The notes below the pieces were generated by a model. It was not told where the DNA came from and did not search any database. It saw only the letters and a list, made by a program, of their open reading frames with translations. DNA of 29,943 bases from a virus (Duplodnaviria > Heunggongvirae > Uroviricota > Caudoviricetes): the IMG/VR virus record IMGVR_UViG_2740892488_000007, one strand, 5' to 3'. Of this stretch, positions 6,916 through 29,943 are shown in pieces (the first letter of the stretch is position 1; every line of letters starts with the position of its first letter). The position numbers and the translations under genes are program-made.

Positions 6916-7401
6916 ATGAGCTATGCAGCTAAAAAACTGCTTGACCGCTATTGGGATCGCCGACTACCTGTCGATCCGTTTAAGCTTGCTAAAGCGTGGG
7001 GTGCTCGTGTTGAAGCACTTGAGGAATCGGCTTATAACAACGATGGGTTAAGCGGTCTGGCTGTCATCAAAAAGGGTGTCCATAGGATTTATTTTGATTC
7101 TAGTGAACATTCTAATCGTCAACGTTTTACTGTTGCACACGAGTTAGGTCATCATGTGCTGGGGCATACCCAGGACGGAGAGTACCATCGGGATAATGTC
7201 GGGAATTATTCAACAGGTGCTCGTGATTACCGTGAGGTTGAAGCAAACAAGTTTGCTGCTGAGTTGTTAATGCCTGAGTCTGCTATACGTCAATTGGTAT
7301 CCAGAGAAGGTATTGATAGCACTTTGAGATTAGCAAGCATCTTTAATGTATCAGAAGCCGCTATGCATTGGCGCTTAAAGAGCTTAGGAATGGCTTATTA
7401 A
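6916..7401 (+). CDS. ImmA/IrrE-family (HEXXH) zinc metallopeptidase, standalone
   Basis: 161-aa ORF with AGGAGG RBS and ATG at 6916. HEXXH motif HELGHHVLGH and downstream EVEANKFAAELLMPE, the signature of ImmA/IrrE-type peptidases. No HTH domain in this ORF. Confidence 0.7.
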   Translation: MSYAAKKLLDRYWDRRLPVDPFKLAKAWGARVEALEESAYNNDGLSGLAVIKKGVHRIYFDSSEHSNRQRFTVAHELGHHVLGHTQDGEYHRDNVGNYSTGARDYREVEANKFAAELLMPESAIRQLVSREGIDSTLRLASIFNVSEAAMHWRLKSLGMAY

Positions 7402-7430
7402 TTAGCCTTTAACTTTTAACCTGTTTAAAA

Positions 7431-7467
7431 TCACCTTTACGTTTGTACATGTAAGGGTGATTTTTTT
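7431..7467 (+). terminator. terminator-like hairpin / attenuator directly upstream of the membrane-protein gene
   Basis: Stem TCACCTTTA (7431-7439) pairs with TAAGGGTGA (7452-7460), with one G-U wobble; 12-nt loop; then T7 (7461-7467) running straight into the ATG at 7468. The only SD-like sequence (AAGGGTGA) is inside the 3' arm of the stem. Confidence 0.5.
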
Positions 7468-8067
7468 ATGGCTGATATTGATTTATCTGGACAGTCCCCA
7501 GAGCAAGGAACCACTCCTAAGGGCGATTCAGATCCTGATATCCTTATAAGGCGAGATAGACGGGATGGTATAGAGCGTAGAAGTATGCGATTAGTGCTCT
7601 CTGCCGTTGTGCTTTGTTTTGCTTGTACATTTCTATGGCAGGGGCTTAACTTTGCTTTGGCTGTTGGAAATGGCTTGCTGGAAGCGAAAAGCAGTATTGC
7701 CGCAGCGATAACACAAAAAGTAGATACACAAACTTGTGTTTCAGCAGAAAAATGTTCTGCTTTATCTTCGGATCCGAAGATGGCTGATGAGAGGATAACA
7801 CCATCTTCAGACACTAATAAAGTTAGAAAATCTATTTCTGGTTTATCCACCGATTGGTTATCGGCCAGTTCTCTAATAGCTATTGTTGCATTCATCCTTG
7901 GTGTGGGTTTAACTTTGCTTTTGACTCTTCTTAAATCAGCATTTCAACACCCGACAGATAAAGACTTTAGAACAAAGTCGACATCTAATACTATTGAGTT
8001 GGCCACGCCAATCAGTGAATTAATAATTGGTGTTCTGAATATAATTAAAGACAAACTATCTAAGTAA
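7468..8067 (+). CDS. small membrane protein with two predicted transmembrane helices
   Basis: 199-aa ORF. Charged N-terminus, hydrophobic segment LVLSAVVLCFACTFLWQGLNFALAV, polar middle, second hydrophobic segment LIAIVAFILGVGLTLLLTLL. AT-rich codon usage unlike the phage backbone. The start may instead be the internal Met at 7585. Confidence 0.55.
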   Translation: MADIDLSGQSPEQGTTPKGDSDPDILIRRDRRDGIERRSMRLVLSAVVLCFACTFLWQGLNFALAVGNGLLEAKSSIAAAITQKVDTQTCVSAEKCSALSSDPKMADERITPSSDTNKVRKSISGLSTDWLSASSLIAIVAFILGVGLTLLLTLLKSAFQHPTDKDFRTKSTSNTIELATPISELIIGVLNIIKDKLSK

Positions 8068-8109
8068 AGCATTAGTTGTGATTTTTTATTGGTTTTAGTG
8101 ATAATACAT

Positions 8110-8142
8110 CTCCAGTACTTATTGTTACTGGAGAGTATTTTT
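8110..8142 (+). terminator. rho-independent terminator after the peptidase / membrane-protein pair
   Basis: Perfect 8-bp stem CTCCAGTA (8110-8117) / TACTGGAG (8126-8133), 8-nt loop, followed by AGTATTTTT. Confidence 0.5.
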
Positions 8143-8351
8143 AGTCGTTTTATATTTTTAATGTTAGTGAATGATATTCACGAGAGTTCACGTTCGATGT
8201 GATGTAATCGGGGGCGTTAACACCAAGAATCGCAACGAGTAATCGGCAAATTAAAGCCTGCATTTGTTGTAATATGTCATCTCCATATTGATAATTGTTA
8301 ATAGTGGTAAAGCCAAGTGGTTGACCATGAAACATAGCTTCATGAAAGTTT

Positions 8352-9092
8352 TCATTGCGGATGTTTGTAATGTTTTTTTTTGCCTGTAACCCATGATGGT
8401 CGTGGTATTCCATAAGTTTTGCAGATCCACTTCAAGCGCCTGGAGTGATTTAGAGTCTTTTCTGTACACTTGTTCTTTTCTGCCCATGTTAAAGCAAAGC
8501 AACTATCCAGTGCCATATAAAGATACTGGAATTTTTCGAAGCTAAGGTATTGTGGGTTTTGGGATAAAAATAGTGCATGCACTATTGCTGCTATATTTAT
8601 TGGTGCGTGTTTGGTTTTTGTCTCGCTAGACATGTATTTGAGTGCTAATTCTATAACCTCTTTTTCAGAGCACTTGACCAGAATAAAGTCAGTTAATTTG
8701 CTGGGTTTTATTGGGGTTGCGTCTAAAAAACCGGCATCAGTAGTTGTTAATCTTATCCCTTTGAAAAAAGACAGACACCACACAGCAAAATTGAGAGTTT
8801 CTAGTGAAGATGTATTTTTTAATTTTAGTGAGTGTGTTTTGGGTAAGCCAAATACTCGTTGGCTAAAAGGCATTGTGGATATGCCTCCATTGAGGTTATA
8901 TACTTCTTGGTTTCCTGGGTATATCCAACCGTTAATAACATTTCTGTGATTGTTTATAAGATTTGTTTTTTCCGCTAGACCGGGTAAAGTAAGTAAAGAA
9001 AAATCATCAGTTTCAACGTTAACTTCTACTGGATAGTATCCAAACTCAGCTTCAATATCATTGGATTGCTGTTCGTCAACTTTACCTTGCAT
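8352..9092 (-). CDS. hypothetical protein (hotspot cargo); frame may continue to 8150 through an A9 tract
   Basis: 246-aa ORF with ATG at 9092-9090 and GGAG RBS. No motif I recognise. AT-rich. The C-terminus ...GKKKHYKHPQ runs through A9 on the coding strand (T9 at 8373-8381 on +); with A8 the frame would continue for 73 more codons to the stop at 8150. Confidence 0.5.
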   Translation of the reverse strand: MQGKVDEQQSNDIEAEFGYYPVEVNVETDDFSLLTLPGLAEKTNLINNHRNVINGWIYPGNQEVYNLNGGISTMPFSQRVFGLPKTHSLKLKNTSSLETLNFAVWCLSFFKGIRLTTTDAGFLDATPIKPSKLTDFILVKCSEKEVIELALKYMSSETKTKHAPINIAAIVHALFLSQNPQYLSFEKFQYLYMALDSCFALTWAEKNKCTEKTLNHSRRLKWICKTYGIPRPSWVTGKKKHYKHPQ

Positions 9093-12501: not shown

Positions 12502-13357
12502 ATGGCAAAAAAAAGTCTCAAAATTCTTTCGTATCGGCGTTGAGGGTGACACCTGTGACGGGCGTGTCATCAGTGCGCAGGATATTCAGGAAATGGCCGA
12601 AACCTTTGACCCGCGTGTCTATGGTTGCCGCATTAACCTGGAACATCTGCGCGGCATCCTGCCTGACGGCATCTTTAAACGTTATGGCGATGTGGTCGAA
12701 CTGAAGGCCGAAAAGATTGACGATGATTCGGCGCTGAAAGGCAAATGGGCGCTGTTTGCGAAAATCACCCCGACCGATGACCTTATCGCGATGAACAAGG
12801 CCGCGCAGAAGGTCTACACCTCAATGGAAATTCAGCCGAACTTTGCCAACACCGGCAAATGTTATCTGGTGGGGCTGGCCGTCACCGATGACCCGGCAAG
12901 CCTCGGCACGGAATACCTGGAATTCTGCCGCACGGCAAAACACAACCCCCTGAACCGCTTCAAATTAAGCCCTGAAAACCTGATTTCAGTGGCAACGCCC
13001 GTTGAGCTGGAATTTGAAGACCTGCCTGAAACCGTGTTCACCGCCCTGACCGAAAAGGTGAAATCCATTTTTGGCCGCAAACAGGCCAGCGATGACGCCC
13101 GTCTGAATGACGTGCATGAAGCGGTGACCGCTGTTGCTGAACATGTGCAGGAAAAACTGAGCGCCACTGAGCAGCGCCTCGCTGAGATGGAAACCGCCTT
13201 TTCCGCACTTAAGCAGGAGGTGACTGACAGGGCGGATGAAACCAGCCAGGCATTCACCCGCCTGAAAAACAGTCTCGACCACACCGAAAGTCTGACCCAG
13301 CAGCGCCGCAGCAAGGCCACCGGCGGTGGCGGTGACGCCCTGATGACGAACTGCTGA
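12502..13357 (+). CDS. O: capsid scaffold protein (P2 gpO-like); start region out of frame at an A8 run
   Basis: ATG at 12502 reads MAKK and then hits A8 (12507-12514) and stops after 13 codons. Removing one A gives a continuous 284-aa protein, the P2 O length. The body ORF is 12593-13357. Confidence 0.8.
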
Positions 13358-21197: not shown

Positions 21198-23817
21198 ATG
21201 AGCACGAAATTTAAAACCGTTATCACTACTGCCGGAGCCGCGAAGCTGGCAGCCGCTACTGTTCCCGGCGGGAAAAAAGTAAACCTGTCTGCAATGGCTG
21301 TGGGTGACGGTAATGGCCAATTGCCGGTGCCGGATGCCGGTCAGACGAAACTGGTGCATGAAGTCTGGCGTCACGCTCTGAATAAAGTCAGTGTGGATAA
21401 CAAGAATAAAAACTATATCGTGGCTGAACTGGTTGTTCCGCCAGAAGTGGGCGGCTTCTGGATGCGTGAGCTTGGTCTGTATGATGATGCCGGAACACTG
21501 ATTGCGGTATCCAACATGGCAGAAAGCTATAAGCCAGAACTGGCTGAAGGCTCCGGACGTGCGCAGACCTGCCGCATGGTTATTATTCTCAGTAACGTGG
21601 CGTCCGTTGAGCTGAGTATTGATGCCAGCACAGTGATGGCGACGCAGGATTACGTCGATGACAAAATCGCAGAGCATGAGCAGTCCCGCCGCCATCCTGA
21701 CGCCACACTGACAGAAAAAGGTTTTACTCAGTTAAGCAGTGCAACAAACAGCACCAGTGAGTCATTGGCGGCAACGCCAAAAGCGGTCAAGGCAGCAAAT
21801 GACAACGCAAATTCACGTCTGGCGAAAAATCAGAATGGTGCAGATATCCAGAATAAATCAGCTTTTCTGGAAAATGTTGGCGTTACCAGCCTGACGTTTA
21901 TGAAAAACAATGGCGAAATGCCGCTTGATGCTGATCTGAATACATTTGGTCCTGTTAAGGCTTATTCAGGTATCTGGTCTAAAGCAACATCCACCAACGC
22001 AACACTGGAGAAAAATTTCCCTGAAGACGGTGCAGTCGGTGTGCTTGAGGTATTCAATGGCGGTAATTTTGCAGGAATGCAGCGTTATACCACCAGAACA
22101 GGCAATGTTTATATGCGCAACCTTTCTGGCACCTGGAATGGCTCAGACGGTCCGTGGAGCTACTGGCGTCAGATTCAGTCAGCAACACGCCCCCTGAGTA
22201 CAACCATTGACCTGAACACGCTCGGAGGCGCAGAGCATCTTGGCTTATGGCGAAACAGTAGTGGCTCTATCGCTTCATTTGACCGCAACTATCCGGAAGA
22301 AGGAAGTTATGGTCAGGGACTCCTTGAAGTTCTTGAAGGTGGTGGGTACTCACGCATGCAACGCTACACGACCCGCCGTGGGGATGTATATGTTCGCTGC
22401 CTTTCTGCTACATGGAATGCAGAGAATCCACAGTGGGAACCGTGGTTAAGAGTCGGTCATCAGTCAGAGAGTCGTTATTACGACGGGGATTTGAATGATG
22501 TGACTTCACCAGGTATTTACAGCGTTACAGGTAAAGCGACCAACGGTCCAATACTGGACGGAAACGGCGTGACAGTCCTCGGGATTCTGGAAGTGTTGAG
22601 GCGCTTTGATGGTGTTAACGTATGGCAGCGTTATACAACTGCCGGAACAGGTGCAACCCTTAAAGGTCGCACGTTTGAGCGCGTCTATACCGGCAGCTCG
22701 TGGAGCGAATGGCGGGAAGTCTACACCTCGTATTCACTTCCCCTGAATCTGGGTATCGGCGGTGCTGTGGCAAAGCTCACCAGCATGGACTGGCAGACCT
22801 ACGACTTTGTGCCGGGCAGTCTGATAACCGTTCGGCTTGATAACATGACCAACATTCCCGACGGTATGGACTGGGGCGTCATTGATGGCAACCTGATAAA
22901 CATCGCAGTGGGTCCGAGTGATGATTCCGGTACGGGGCGCTCAATGCATGTATGGCGCAGCACCGTAAGTAAAGCGAACTACCGCTTTTTTTATGGTGCG
23001 TATTTCAGGAAATCCGGGAAGTCGCACGATCACCACAAGACGTGTGCCAATCATTGACGAAGCCCAGACATGGGCGGCGAAACAAACCTTCAGCGCCGGT
23101 CTTTCAGGCGAACTGTCCGGCAATGCTGCTACAGCAACAAAGCTGAAAACGGCAAGGACAATTAACGGCGTAAAATTTGACGGCTCGGCAAATATTGAAG
23201 CGTTTCCGCCAGGTGTTCCGCTGCCGTGGCCATCAGATACACCACCTGCAGGCTATGCAATTATGCAGGGGCAGACGTTTGATAAGGCTGCATATCCGAA
23301 ACTGGCTATTGCCTATCCTTCTGGTGTTATTCCAGATATGCGCGGCTGGACAATCAAGGGCAAACCCGCCAGTGGGCGTGCCGTATTGTCACAGGAACAG
23401 GACGGGATTAAATCGCATACTCACAGCGCCAGTGCGTCAAATACGGATTTAGGGACGAAAACGACCAGTTCATTTGATTACGGCACGAAGACAGTCAGTA
23501 CGTTTAACTACGGAACAAAAACCACTAATACCACAGGTAACCATACACATACCATTTACAGAGGGAATGCCAATACTAATGGTGAAACCGGTAAAACAGG
23601 CTTTGACAACCCATCGTTTAATGGCACATCAGGAGCTGCCGGGAATCATGCCCACACGGTAGATATTGGCGCACATAATCATACGGTTGGTATTGGTGCA
23701 CATTCACACACGGTTGCTATTGGCTCACACGGGCACTCTATTACCGTTAATGCTACAGGTAATACCGAAAACACCGTCAAAAACATCGCATTTAACTATA
23801 TTGTGAGGCTTGCATAA
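21198..23817 (+). CDS. H: tail fibre protein H; frame broken near a T7 run
   Basis: ORF 21198-23057 (619 aa) and ORF 22993-23817 (274 aa) overlap in different frames. The second frame opens only after a stop at 22966-22968, so the shift lies between 22969 and 23057; T7 at 22986-22992 is the likely site. Fusion gives about 872 aa. The C-terminal part is His-rich with HxH repeats. Confidence 0.75.
23656..23736 (+). repeat. 3 x 27-bp tandem repeat encoding TV(D/G/A)IG(A/S)HxH units in the tail-fibre tip
   Basis: Units at 23656-23682, 23683-23709 and 23710-23736 (ACGGTAGATATTGGCGCACATAATCAT / ACGGTTGGTATTGGTGCACATTCACAC / ACGGTTGCTATTGGCTCACACGGGCAC). Confidence 0.7.
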
Positions 23818-24396
23818 TGGCTTTCAGAATGAGTGCAGAAGCACAAACTATCCACGTATTTAATTTACTTGATGGAACCAATGAATTTATTGGGGAAAGT
23901 GACGCATATATCCCACCGTACACTGGCCTGCCTGCAAACAGTACAGATATTGCACCACCTGATATTCCAGCTGGTTATGCAGCCGTTTTCAATGCAGACG
24001 AAATGAAATGGGAACTGATGGAAGACCATCGCGGAAAGACTGTCTACGAAACGAAAACGGGAGCAGCCATTTATATTTCTGAACTTGGCGTATTACCTCC
24101 AGACGTGACAGCCATTTCCCCGGATGGGGATTATCAGAAATGGAACGGCAATGCGTGGGTGAATGATGAGAATGCAGAGCGTGATGCGCTTGTCAGAGCG
24201 GCGGAGTCTCAGAAGAAAGAGCAGATTGCATATGCAGGTGAAATCATTGCCACGCTGCAGGATGCTGTCGATTTAGATATGGCTACCGAGGAAGAAAAGT
24301 TAAGTCTGACACACTGGAAAAAAATACCGTGTGTTACTGAATCGCGTTCAGCCGGAAAATGCCCCGGATATTGAATGGCCGGAACTACCGCAATAA
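23817..24396 (+). CDS. G: tail fibre assembly protein (Tfa, gpG-like); C-terminus out of frame at an A7 run
   Basis: As written the ORF ends at 24374 with ...[20 protein letters not shown]. With A6 instead of A7 (24318-24324) the end reads ...[26 protein letters not shown], the conserved Tfa C-terminal pattern as I recall it, stopping at 24394-24396. Confidence 0.75.
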
Positions 24397-26727: not shown

Positions 26728-26838
26728 ATGAGTAACAATGTAAAATTACAGGTATTGCTCAGGGCTGTTGACCAGGCATCCCGCCCGTTTAAATCCATCC
26801 GCACAGCGAGTGCGTATTACCGTGAAGGAGATCGGTGA
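26728..26838 (+). pseudogene. T: tape-measure gene T, 5' fragment only (truncated by IS insertion)
   Basis: ATG at 26728 overlaps the E' stop region, where the tape-measure gene is expected. The ORF stops after 36 codons at 26836-26838, inside the terminal-repeat region of the adjacent IS. No tape-measure-sized ORF follows. Confidence 0.6.
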
Positions 26839-26895
26839 GTAACATCGATGGAGATCGGTTCGTGTCACTTTCACAGAACCGTTTTTAAATTACCT

Positions 26896-27645
26896 TCACT
26901 GATCTCCTTCGGTCAACGGAGATTGTATTTTCCGCATTGATTCTCCTTTAAGTTCGATCTTGATACTGCCATGAACCAGTCGATCTAGGATGGCATCCGC
27001 ATGTGTGGAGTCTCCGATCATTTTGTACCAGTTTTCCACCGGCAACTGGCTCACTACGATGATTGAGCCTCGTTGGTACATCAGATCCACTATTTCCAGC
27101 AGGTCGCTACGCTGTTCTGATGAGAGAGGTTCCAGCCCCCAGTCATCCAGAAGCAGCAGATCGCTATTATTCAGCCTGGTCAAAAGTTTGCTGTATCTTC
27201 CATCAGCATGCCCCTGATAGCACTGTTCCATCAGCGCTTTAAGGCGATAATAGTAGACCTTGTATCCCTGTCGGCAGGCATTATGACCAAGTGCACATGC
27301 CAGGAACGTTTTACCGCTGCCGGTGGCCCCGGTCAGTAAAATATTTTGTTTCAGGGTTAACCAGTTTCCCTGACTGAGTGAACGGATGAGGGCCCTGTCC
27401 AGCCCTCTATTGTTACGATAATCCAGCTTTGATAACTCAGCATTAAGTCTGAACCGTGCATGTTTGATCAGACGCTCTGCCTTCCTGTTTTCACGGCAGG
27501 TTAGTTCTTCTGCTGTCAGTAATGACAGGCGTTCTTCGAAGCCCAGCTCCTGGTATGTGCCCGGTTGAGCAAGTTGCTTTTTAAGCGCATCACGGAAGCC
27601 GGTGAGTTTAAGTGCGGTCAGTTGTTCGTAAAGATGATTCATCAT
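26896..27645 (-). CDS. istB: IS21-family helper ATPase IstB
   Basis: 249 aa with Walker A (LLTGATGSGKTF) and Walker B (LLLLDDWG); immediately downstream of the transposase gene. Confidence 0.85.
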   Translation of the reverse strand: MMNHLYEQLTALKLTGFRDALKKQLAQPGTYQELGFEERLSLLTAEELTCRENRKAERLIKHARFRLNAELSKLDYRNNRGLDRALIRSLSQGNWLTLKQNILLTGATGSGKTFLACALGHNACRQGYKVYYYRLKALMEQCYQGHADGRYSKLLTRLNNSDLLLLDDWGLEPLSSEQRSDLLEIVDLMYQRGSIIVVSQLPVENWYKMIGDSTHADAILDRLVHGSIKIELKGESMRKIQSPLTEGDQ

Positions 27646-27656
27646 TGGATCCCGTA

Positions 27657-29198
27657 TCAGTGGTAATACTCACTGCCGCGTACGTTTTCGTGTTCCATCG
27701 TGGATAACAGATCTGGTTTTGGATCCTGAACAGGTTGTTTATCCAGACCTTTTTCCAGGATCGATTTAATACCTGACAGACGCCATACCTTTGTTTTCAG
27801 AGCTCTTGCACATGCTGCATTAAGTCTGGCTTTACTGTATTTTTTATGAAGGTTCAGGAGTCCAAGGCAGAAGCGATAGCTTTGTTCCGGATGTGGACGA
27901 GAGTTCAGTATATGAAGCACATAACTATGAGTTTCACTGCCTATGTGCCCCGCCCATTCCAGAAGACGCTCTGGCGTCCAGGTGGCATGCTGTCGATGAG
28001 CTTCAGGCATGTGCTCGTTGCGGGTACTGTAGCCATAAGTACGCTTGCGCGGGTGCACAGCAACCTCCTGCCCCTGATTGAAGAGTCTTACCAGTTCTCC
28101 GGAGATCCATGCTTCCAGTTGCTGGCCTAACAGCGAACATGGAACCGAGTAGTAATGTTTGTCGATTTCCACGTGGTAATCGGCATGAACTCTGACTTTC
28201 TTCACCAGGGTGTAACTGTAACTGGCTTCAGGAAGAGGCTTCAGTGCGGGTTTATCAAGCTGGATGAAGAGTTCTGCACGTGAATAACCCAACTTCTGCA
28301 TTATTTTGTTATTCAGTCTTTCCAGCAACTCCCGAATGCGCTGATTAAGCGATGCAAGGCTGTAGAAGATCTCATGCCTGATTCGGGCCATGATCCAGCG
28401 TTCAACAACCTGAACGCCAACTTCAGCTTTGGCTTTATCTTTCGGTTTACGTGGCCGCGCAGGCAAAACTGCGACATTATAATGCTCAAGCATCTGCTGG
28501 TAGGTAGGGTTAACGTCAGGATCATACTTACATGCCCTGGATGTGGCGCTTTTCAGATTGTCCGGAACAACAAGTTCAGGAACGCCACCCAACCACTGGA
28601 AGCAGCGAACATGACTCATCACCCAGTCTTCAAGCTGCTGAGACCAGGTGGCCTCTGCCCATGTGTAACTTGATGCCCCGAGAACAGCTACGATGACCTG
28701 AGCAGTTCTTATTTCTCCGGTCTCAGGGTCGGTAACGCCAACGGTAGGTCCACAGTAATCAACGAAAAGTTTTTCGCCAGCTTTATGTACCTGACGCATT
28801 GATGGTGAAGTGGTTTTGAGCCATTCACGGTACATCCGGCAGTAATGGTTATAGCTGTAAAAACCGCCTGGATTACGCTCACAGTATTCTTCCCAGAGTA
28901 GCTGCAGCGTCACGCATTTATTACGCAGTTCCCGGTGTACTGTAGCCCAGTCAGGCAGAGAGTGCTTCTTCATCTTAACCTGGGTCTGAAGGAACGCATG
29001 TTTTAGTTTTGTATCATCCCATCCTGTAGGTAAGGGCCACTGCTTTATGCCAAGTTGAGCCGCCCGATTAGCATATCTGGATACAACGGAAGGGGAGATT
29101 GCAAGACTACGACCAATTTGTCGATGGCTGAGTCCAACACCGTATTTAAGCCTAAGAATTTCTTTAAGTTTTCTCATAGAAATTGGAACTGTTGGCAT
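27657..29198 (-). CDS. istA: IS21-family transposase IstA
   Basis: 513-aa ORF with an N-terminal HTH-like region (LSHRQIGRSLAISPSVVSRY), upstream of and co-oriented with istB; ATG at 29198-29196. Confidence 0.8.
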   Translation of the reverse strand: MPTVPISMRKLKEILRLKYGVGLSHRQIGRSLAISPSVVSRYANRAAQLGIKQWPLPTGWDDTKLKHAFLQTQVKMKKHSLPDWATVHRELRNKCVTLQLLWEEYCERNPGGFYSYNHYCRMYREWLKTTSPSMRQVHKAGEKLFVDYCGPTVGVTDPETGEIRTAQVIVAVLGASSYTWAEATWSQQLEDWVMSHVRCFQWLGGVPELVVPDNLKSATSRACKYDPDVNPTYQQMLEHYNVAVLPARPRKPKDKAKAEVGVQVVERWIMARIRHEIFYSLASLNQRIRELLERLNNKIMQKLGYSRAELFIQLDKPALKPLPEASYSYTLVKKVRVHADYHVEIDKHYYSVPCSLLGQQLEAWISGELVRLFNQGQEVAVHPRKRTYGYSTRNEHMPEAHRQHATWTPERLLEWAGHIGSETHSYVLHILNSRPHPEQSYRFCLGLLNLHKKYSKARLNAACARALKTKVWRLSGIKSILEKGLDKQPVQDPKPDLLSTMEHENVRGSEYYH

Positions 29199-29643
29199 AG
29201 GTATCCTTTACCGGAATGGCAAAAGATACAGATCAACACACCTGTGAAGTTCCAATAACATTGATGGAGATCACTGAATAACAAAATGAGTCAAAAGTGA
29301 TCTCCATCGATGTTATTCAGCGATCTGTTCAAATGTTATTACCCGATCTCGATGGAAGTTATTGAGTGATCTCCTTTCATGAAAATACGCACTGAATTGC
29401 GTAACCTTGCAGTAGCTCGAGTATTACACTGCATAGTGTGCAGGGTTATCTCCCATCGAGAAAATATCGGCGCCAGCGAATAACGTCACCTTAGATGTAG
29501 CAGTTGCCAAATAGTGACTCAAGGGCGGGCTTACCGCATACACTGACACTTAGCGGATCGACAGAATATTATTAGCAGATCATCACTGAACGCTACGTAA
29601 TTATCGTAATAAAGGCTTTTTCTGGCTACCAGGAAGACCTGAC

Positions 29644-29943
29644 ATGGCTCTGCTCTGGAACCAGGCCGCAGGAAGCATCAATCTGGAGTTTATCAGCTAC
29701 TGGAATTCCGGTGTATTGGCAGCCCCTGATAATCACCTGACCCACGAAGAGCGCTCTGCTTTGCAGAAACTCTGGGGCGGTTTGGAGACAGGAGATGTAA
29801 CGATTATAGGACGTTCTGATGAAGTCCATGATTTTACCTCCGCCTTAATTAACTGTTTTCTTTCTGAAGAAGAAATTGTCTGGTGGCAATCAGGTGGCAT
29901 TTTCCCGGATCCCTGGCCCGCTAATATATCCCGGCTGAACTGA
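29644..29943 (+). CDS. hypothetical protein (not of P2 tail-module origin)
   Basis: 99-aa ORF with AGGAAG RBS at 29631-29636 and ATG at 29644; ends with TGA at the window edge. No motif I recognise. Confidence 0.4.
   Translation: MALLWNQAAGSINLEFISYWNSGVLAAPDNHLTHEERSALQKLWGGLETGDVTIIGRSDEVHDFTSALINCFLSEEEIVWWQSGGIFPDPWPANISRLN

Follow-up and report, generated by a model that had tools for sequence, protein, structure and literature searches.

A P2-type tail-fibre gene with a T4 gp37/lambda Stf-type receptor-binding tip in an Escherichia coli prophage, apparently split at a homopolymer

The receptor-binding tips of T4 gp37 and lambda Stf belong to a described family of ~215 aa that is present in more than 200 phages, is accompanied by an adjacent gp38/Tfa chaperone gene, and has its divergence centred on a specificity segment (Magaziner & Salmond 2022, PMC9659904). 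According to summaries of the gp37 structure (PMC6116203, PMC11705849), its six-stranded needle has iron ions in the core, and each ion is coordinated octahedrally by an HxH motif contributed once by every one of the three chains. The R-type pyocin fibre carries one HxH iron site (PMC6116203). Both Ur-lambda Stf and T4 gp37 bind OmpC, and in lambda PaPa the stf gene is seen as two ORFs by virtue of a one-base frameshift (PMC12617516). Here we describe a tail-fibre gene in a P2-like prophage that carries a tip and chaperone of this family and that likewise appears as two ORFs.

The DNA analyzed, referred to here as the window, is a stretch of 29,943 nucleotides (IMG/VR record IMGVR_UViG_2740892488_000007) containing a prophage with the gene order J-I-H-tfa-FI. 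The tail-fibre gene H and the tfa gene are flanked by gene I (baseplate) and gene FI (sheath), and this synteny is shared with P2, where the genes for gpH and gpG also follow J and I and precede FI. In related genomes the prophage is integrated between cpxP and fieF. Within the window H is represented by two overlapping ORFs on the plus strand, one of 619 aa (21198–23057) and one of 274 aa in the +1 frame, which starts with an ATG at 22993 and ends at 23817; the first frame closes at 23057 and the second is open from 22969. Deletion of one T at position 22986 generates an ORF of 2619 nt encoding 872 aa, and this corrected H has no mismatches to WP_032221693.1 (‘phage tail protein’), which strains 21964 and S14 of E. 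coli both encode intact as a single 2619-nt CDS, followed in each by a 579-nt tail-fibre assembly gene. An orthologue of 874 aa, also a single CDS, is present in the cultured phage Peduovirus P24A7b. The two ORFs are thus one tail-fibre gene, the equivalent of gpH, of a P2-like (Peduovirus) E. coli prophage; the preliminary description of this DNA, which read the two frames as a fused H of about 872 aa, was right in this respect, and homologous phages and prophages annotate one CDS of 872–874 aa rather than an independent 274-aa gene.

The same description placed the break only within 22969–23057. It does lie in this interval, and it can now be narrowed to a run of seven T residues (T7) that is T6 at the same spot in both near-identical reference genomes when these are compared base by base with the window. 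The T7 allele was not found elsewhere: a 120-nt query covering the T-run finds the region in 331 E. coli genomes, in none of them with 100% identity, and the best 60 of the 331 all align over 119 nt and therefore have T6. The features of the region are listed in Table 1.

Table 1. Coordinates in the window of the features of the H-tfa region
Feature	Coordinates	Strand	Basis
H, frame 0 part (aa 1–596)	21198..22985	+	Pfam, P2 H comparison, internal repeats, AF2/Foldseek
PF12571, ‘phage tail-collar fibre protein, N-terminal’ (aa 1–151)	21198..21650	+	Pfam, 2.4e-57
PF03406, phage fibre repeat (aa 170–211)	21705..21830	+	Pfam, 5.9e-21
Three tandem ~90-aa repeats (aa ~240–515)	about 21915..22739	+	Alignment of the repeats with each other
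Fourth beta-rich domain	from about 22740	+	
T7 homopolymer, apparent frameshift site; T6 in all relatives examined	22985..22991	+	Comparison with two 99.9%-identical genomes
H, frame +1 part (aa 597–872 and stop); the 274-aa ORF is its in-frame remnant	22986..23817	+	ORF list, corrected ORF
gp37/Stf-type receptor-binding tip (aa 653–872)	23155..23814	+	phmmer match to 2XGF, PF07484, alignment with gp37 and Stf
Module junction (aa ~656–668, within a 22-residue segment)	23165..23200	+	blastn HSP boundaries, protein comparisons
PF07484, Collar (aa 672–719)	23212..23355	+	Pfam, E=2.2e-10, 40.8 bits against a cut-off of 24
HTH (aa 740–742)	23416..23424	+	Alignment with gp37 and Stf
HTH (aa 782–784)	23542..23550	+	Alignment with gp37 and Stf
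Variable head segment (aa ~785–816)	about 23551..23646	+	Alignment with gp37 and Stf
HAH (aa 817–819)	23647..23655	+	Alignment with gp37 and Stf
HNH (aa 826–828)	23674..23682	+	Alignment with gp37 and Stf
HSH (aa 835–837)	23701..23709	+	Alignment with gp37 and Stf
HGH (aa 844–846)	23728..23736	+	Alignment with gp37 and Stf
Three tandem 27-bp units, 76–83% identity, encoding HxHTV(D/G/A)IG(A/S)	23647..23729	+	TRF, repeat search
Tail-fibre assembly chaperone, lambda Tfa type, 192 aa once corrected	23817..24396	+	PF02413, lambda Tfa identity

The N-terminal part of H is closely related to that of P2. Corrected H shares 83% aa identity with P2 H (669 aa) over aa 1–207 only (BLASTP), and the domain content of this segment, PF12571 and PF03406, is common to the two proteins. 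Beyond aa 207 there is no significant BLASTP match to P2 H, including its C-terminal receptor-binding region (aa ~208–669). The length of 669 aa that had been given for P2 H is correct, and H is indeed some 200 aa longer (872 vs 669 aa), but the view that this results from an extra C-terminal portion needs revision, since only aa 1–207 are P2 H-like and the remainder has been replaced. With only these residues aligning and two-thirds of H different, H is not P2 H plus 200 additional residues; the additional length is accounted for by three repeats, predicted to be pyocin-knob-like domains, together with a swapped tip, and is not an appendage on P2 H.

The shaft contains three tandem repeats of ~90 aa that align with each other (DLN...G-LEV...QRYTT...W--W), followed by a further beta-rich domain. 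There is no Pfam model for aa 212–671, a scan of the full H protein gives no NCBIfam family match, and a PDB sequence search returns nothing for aa 234–650. An AF2 model of aa 225–595 (mean pLDDT 70) has the R1 pyocin fibre 6CL5 as its top Foldseek match (E=1.5e-6, with a TM of only 0.21), followed by staphylococcal phage receptor-binding proteins, and homologues are named ‘pyocin knob domain-containing protein’ by NCBI. We therefore predict, with medium confidence, that the shaft consists of three tandem pyocin-knob-like domains and one more beta domain. In the monomer model the tandem knobs of the R-type pyocin fibre (6CL5/6CL6) are the best structural match to the shaft repeats, although the pyocin fibre has two knobs and a lectin-like foot rather than three predicted knobs and a gp37-type tip, and sequence similarity between the two is undetectable.

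The C-terminal segment of H, aa 653–872, matches the T4 gp37 receptor-binding tip (PDB 2XGF, residues 785–1026 of the distal long tail fibre subunit) with E=3e-76 (phmmer against PDB). In alignments the tip shares 71% aa identity with T4 gp37 (59–71% over 220 aa) and 68% with lambda Stf, comparisons that were among those suggested as a check. The collar, which is also recognized by Pfam, is nearly invariant across H, gp37 and Stf, and conservation among the three extends to the ascending strand (a segment of 25 residues), the descending strand (segments of 26 and 18 residues) and an 11-residue C-terminal segment. Six HxH motifs are present, all between aa 740 and 846, with none elsewhere in the 872-aa protein, and all six fall in alignment columns in which His is invariant in T4 gp37 and lambda Stf. 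Three of the motifs lie in a 27-bp tandem repeat (TRF 23653–23729, period 27, 2.9 copies, score 91), and its three units specify consecutive 9-aa rungs in the descending strand. These units are also conserved in both T4 gp37 and lambda Stf, and the 27-bp repeat is therefore an old structural repeat and not a recent duplication. These observations agree with what was first noted from the letters of the DNA, namely C-terminal HxH motifs, three tandem 27-bp repeats encoding TV(D/G/A)IG(A/S)HxH, and a tip of the metal-binding T4 gp37 kind, the last of these being strongly supported by the 2XGF match, the six aligned HxH motifs and PF07484. By homology with gp37, the H tip may bind metal at each of its six sites.

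Divergence within the tip is concentrated between the HTHT at 782 and the HAHT at 817, where the head segment cannot be aligned and varies in length. T4 gp37 and H have in common the collar, the needle strands lined with HxH, a C-terminal segment (19 residues) and a gp38/Tfa-family chaperone gene directly downstream of the fibre gene. They differ in that T4 gp37 has seven HxH motifs against six in H, that the head in H is shorter and unrelated in sequence, and that the ascending strand in H has one extra ‘GTKT...(F)(D/N)Y’ unit; in addition, gp37 is a protein of 1026 aa, whereas here the tip is carried on a P2-type fibre of 872 aa. Lambda shares both the tip family (68% identity) and the chaperone type (65%), but its Stf differs in having eight HxH motifs, a far longer insert in the head, and an N-terminus that attaches to a siphovirus tail and not to a myovirus baseplate. 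Because the head is shorter than in T4 and lambda and one HxH rung is missing, the receptor specificity of H may differ from OmpC. A broader proposal, which we regard as unlikely, is that the six-rung needle and minimal ~32-aa head define a distinct gp37/Stf specificity class, perhaps with a receptor other than OmpC, and that three possibly sugar-binding knobs would make the fibre bivalent; a variant in which slippage in the T-run acts as a switch that turns the tip off is much less likely still.

The start codon of the downstream chaperone gene overlaps the H stop codon at 23817. The product contains PF02413 (Caudo_TAP; Pfam, 6.6e-40) and is related over its full length to lambda Tfa (65% aa identity), more distantly to T4 gp38 (29%, E=4e-19), and to P2 G through its C-terminal 99 aa only (39%). 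The locus departs from P2 gpH/gpG in both genes, with no detectable similarity in the fibre past aa 207 and with a chaperone that shares only its C-terminal ~99 aa with gpG. This lambda Tfa-type chaperone belongs to the same cassette as the tip. Its gene is interrupted in the window, where the A-run at 24318–24324 contains one additional A.

The boundary of this cassette within H can be defined closely. DNA homology to peduoviruses with a P2-type tip (569R9, 94%; P2SIDE7, 90%) covers 21198 to 23165 and then stops, and homology to lambda stf begins at 23200 and to T4 gene 37 at 23212 (blastn); the shaft and tip modules join in a conserved 13-residue linker. Phages 569R9 and P2SIDE7 have the same first ~656 aa as H, and their fibres, 911 and 919 aa long, terminate in the P2-type tip. 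WP_032221693.1 is identical to corrected H, and the P24A7b fibre (YP_009877362.1, 874 aa) has the same architecture and a 100% identical gp37-type tip, but it has a diverged knob shaft and an overall identity of 80%. Since 569R9 and P2SIDE7 share the shaft but have another tip, and P24A7b shares the tip but has a diverged shaft, the shaft and the tip plus chaperone are independently exchanged modules. The suggestion that the receptor-binding module has been swapped is strongly supported by these module boundaries, with related peduoviruses carrying the same first ~656 aa and a P2-type tip. A junction pinned to 23165–23200 is a splice point of the kind used to engineer P2 and pyocin fibres with new host ranges.

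The nature of the T7 run is best considered together with the indel pattern across the window. Two E. coli chromosomes, those of strains 21964 (NZ_CM190142.1) and S14 (NZ_CP107114.1), are 99.9% identical to the window over H-tfa (megablast against complete E. coli genomes), and the region is 3201 nt long in each against 3203 nt in the window query. Base-by-base comparison over 29.4 kb with 21964 and 25.6 kb with S14 reveals 15 indels and only 1–3 substitutions. All 15 indels sit in A/T runs of at least six; in 14 of them the window has one base more than the references, and in the remaining one it has a base fewer. The fraction affected depends on the length of the run in the reference, rising from 0/94 for runs of five through 9/40 for six and 4/7 for seven to 2/2 for eight. 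Intergenic runs are affected as well as several genes, among them those for the portal, gpS (18490), gpI (20732), H, Tfa (24318) and the sheath (24712). That these named genes are essential and are all hit at once was counted towards an artefact. A mismatch-repair-deficient mutator was considered as the origin of the indels and rejected, as numerous transitions, along with indels of both signs, would then be expected and not 14 additions of one base with 1–3 substitutions. From the 15:1 ratio of indels to substitutions, the way in which the affected fraction strictly follows run length and the 14:1 excess of +1 changes, we conclude that the split in H is very probably due to a T6 run called one base too long, as one among 15 homopolymer errors in the window, and not a biological frameshift. 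This differs from lambda PaPa, in which the stf frameshift arose as a true mutation in the laboratory; the one in H looks like a sequencing error.

A genuine frameshift nonetheless has some attraction, because an ISEc12 element lies inside the tape-measure gene T. The prophage is already defective through this insertion, selection against frameshifts would be relaxed, and H, like other genes of a decaying, IS-disrupted prophage, could be a pseudogene that leaves no functional fibre; homopolymers are also natural slippage hotspots. Strain 21964, however, has the same IS insertion and yet keeps all 15 homopolymers intact, and neutral decay should yield mostly substitutions and indels of both signs, not 15 indels against the one substitution seen relative to 21964. 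The run-length dependence and the bias to +1 are typical of base-calling error, and such a density genome-wide would amount to thousands of frameshifts, so we consider decay of H quite improbable. The position of the T7 run inside the coding sequence, just upstream of a swappable tip, together with the programmed −1 frameshift that P2-like phages have elsewhere (E/E', from annotation), raises the idea of a functional slippery site, used either in programmed slippage of ribosome or transcription, or for phase-variable on/off switching of the receptor-binding tip. All relatives have T6 and a continuous ORF, though, similar +1 changes occur in 13 other A/T runs, including intergenic ones, and the 619-aa product would be left without any receptor-binding tip; a role of this type is very improbable.

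Least probable of all is that the 274-aa ORF is a gene in its own right, encoding an adhesin or tip protein that sits on a 619-aa fibre in the manner of the gp38 adhesins on T2-type gp37. The ATG at 22993, the chaperone gene that follows directly, and the separate orf314 of lambda PaPa are compatible with such a gene, but the 274-aa part is never separate in relatives, the in-frame sequence across the break (12 residues) is kept in 569R9 and P24A7b, and orf314 is known to be what remains of a frameshifted stf (PMC12617516). Given that the window carries systematic homopolymer errors, none of its apparent frameshifts and pseudogenes, which include gpI, H, Tfa, sheath and portal, should be taken at face value.

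The overall reading that we prefer, to which we assign a probability of roughly 0.88, is of a single H gene encoding a three-part mosaic fibre with a gp37/Stf-type tip and Tfa cassette, split in the window by a homopolymer miscall. In such a fibre, aa 1–207, of P2 H type, would dock a homotrimer on the baseplate, from which aa ~225–650 would project as a knob-studded shaft. A collar-needle-head tip of the T4 gp37/lambda Stf family would follow from aa ~656–668. The trimeric architecture, receptor class and chaperone dependence of the tip are predicted from its homologues: by homology with the gp37 structure three chains would form a six-stranded beta needle, the core of which would be stapled by iron ions, with three copies of one HxH providing the octahedral coordination of each ion, in six rungs compared with seven in T4. 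The short head (aa ~785–816), between the ascending and descending strands, would contact the receptor, for which a porin of the outer membrane, for example OmpC, and the LPS core are the likeliest candidates, and the Tfa-type chaperone presumably drives trimerization of the tip.

H is a member of a tip-plus-chaperone family that is already described and catalogued, and it adds one more case, of little scientific weight, to the long-known exchange of modular tips and chaperones among P2-, lambda- and T4-type phages. The tip is found by tblastn in 629 phage records, which include T4-like, lambda-like, P2-like and other phages, with T4, lambda and their relatives at 1e-61 to 1e-81. The H-tfa pair is present over at least 80% of its length in 97 complete E. 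coli genomes, and the tip, likewise over at least 80%, in about 343 of 5426. The StfR/TfaR- and StfQ/TfaQ-type genes of E. coli prophages group with lambda Stf and Tfa in the same tip family, and most E. coli genomes (3586) contain stfR/stfQ-type genes that match the final ~140 nt of the tip with ~85% DNA identity.

The middle part of the tail-fibre protein H, the knob shaft (three tandem pyocin-knob-like domains, assigned with medium confidence, and a further beta domain), matches the 'large distal tail fiber subunit' (P0025) of the T4-like Shigella phage JK23 at 61% identity along the whole length of the shaft, and in other E. coli prophages it carries quite different tips (Pfam PF12604, PF21446, PF13884 and PF03335). 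Together, these relationships indicate that the shaft, too, is a module common to P2-like and T-even phages. In the ascending strand of the gp37-type H tip there are three 'GTKT...(F)(D/N)Y' units whereas T4 gp37 has two, and the extra unit occupies the place of an additional HxH rung in T4.

Features of the window, with coordinates
Feature	Window	Location or details
Cargo region	~6916-9092 (L003 8340-10515)	Between replication gene A and portal gene
Knob shaft	21870-22983	H aa 225-595
Three 'GTKT...(F)(D/N)Y' units	23452-23523	Tip ascending strand; 10 aa each (aa 752, 762, 772)
ISEc12 (IS21-family, istA/istB)	~26812-29391	Inserted 84 bp into tape-measure gene T
Island segment unrelated to T	29392-29943	Right of ISEc12
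Single-base indels	6036, 6060, 6893, 8373, 9377, 9493, 9743, 9755, 10510, 12507, 18490, 20732, 22986, 24318, 24712

The ISEc12 insertion in T is present also in E. coli strain 21964 (NZ_CM190142.1) and absent from strain S14 (NZ_CP107114.1), and the interruption of this gene makes the prophage defective whatever the status of the homopolymer indels. The segment to the right of the element is not the remainder of T but an unrelated piece of an island; it lies under or beside a 'GTP-binding protein' gene, and many ExPEC genomes carry it with 100% identity. The junction arose either in this isolate, through a rearrangement mediated by the IS, or during assembly, through a chimeric join at a repeated IS.

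Base-by-base comparison with these two genomes, which are 99.9% identical, identifies 15 single-base indels in the window, all of them in A/T runs of at least six and all except one being +1 (14/15). They cut or shorten the portal gene, gpS, gpI, H, the gene for its assembly chaperone Tfa, the sheath gene FI and one cargo ORF, and the indel at 12507 (position approximate) lies close to the scaffold gene's 5' end. The pattern suggests systematic homopolymer errors, and the entire window should be treated as affected.

The interval between gene A and the portal gene is a known variable hotspot in P2. Two of its ORFs here (199 and 313 aa) have no match in Pfam or PADLOC, and a further one encodes a CapP-like ImmA/IrrE M78 metallopeptidase (PADLOC capP, 1e-30; PF06114). 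The region may serve as a module for defence or regulation.
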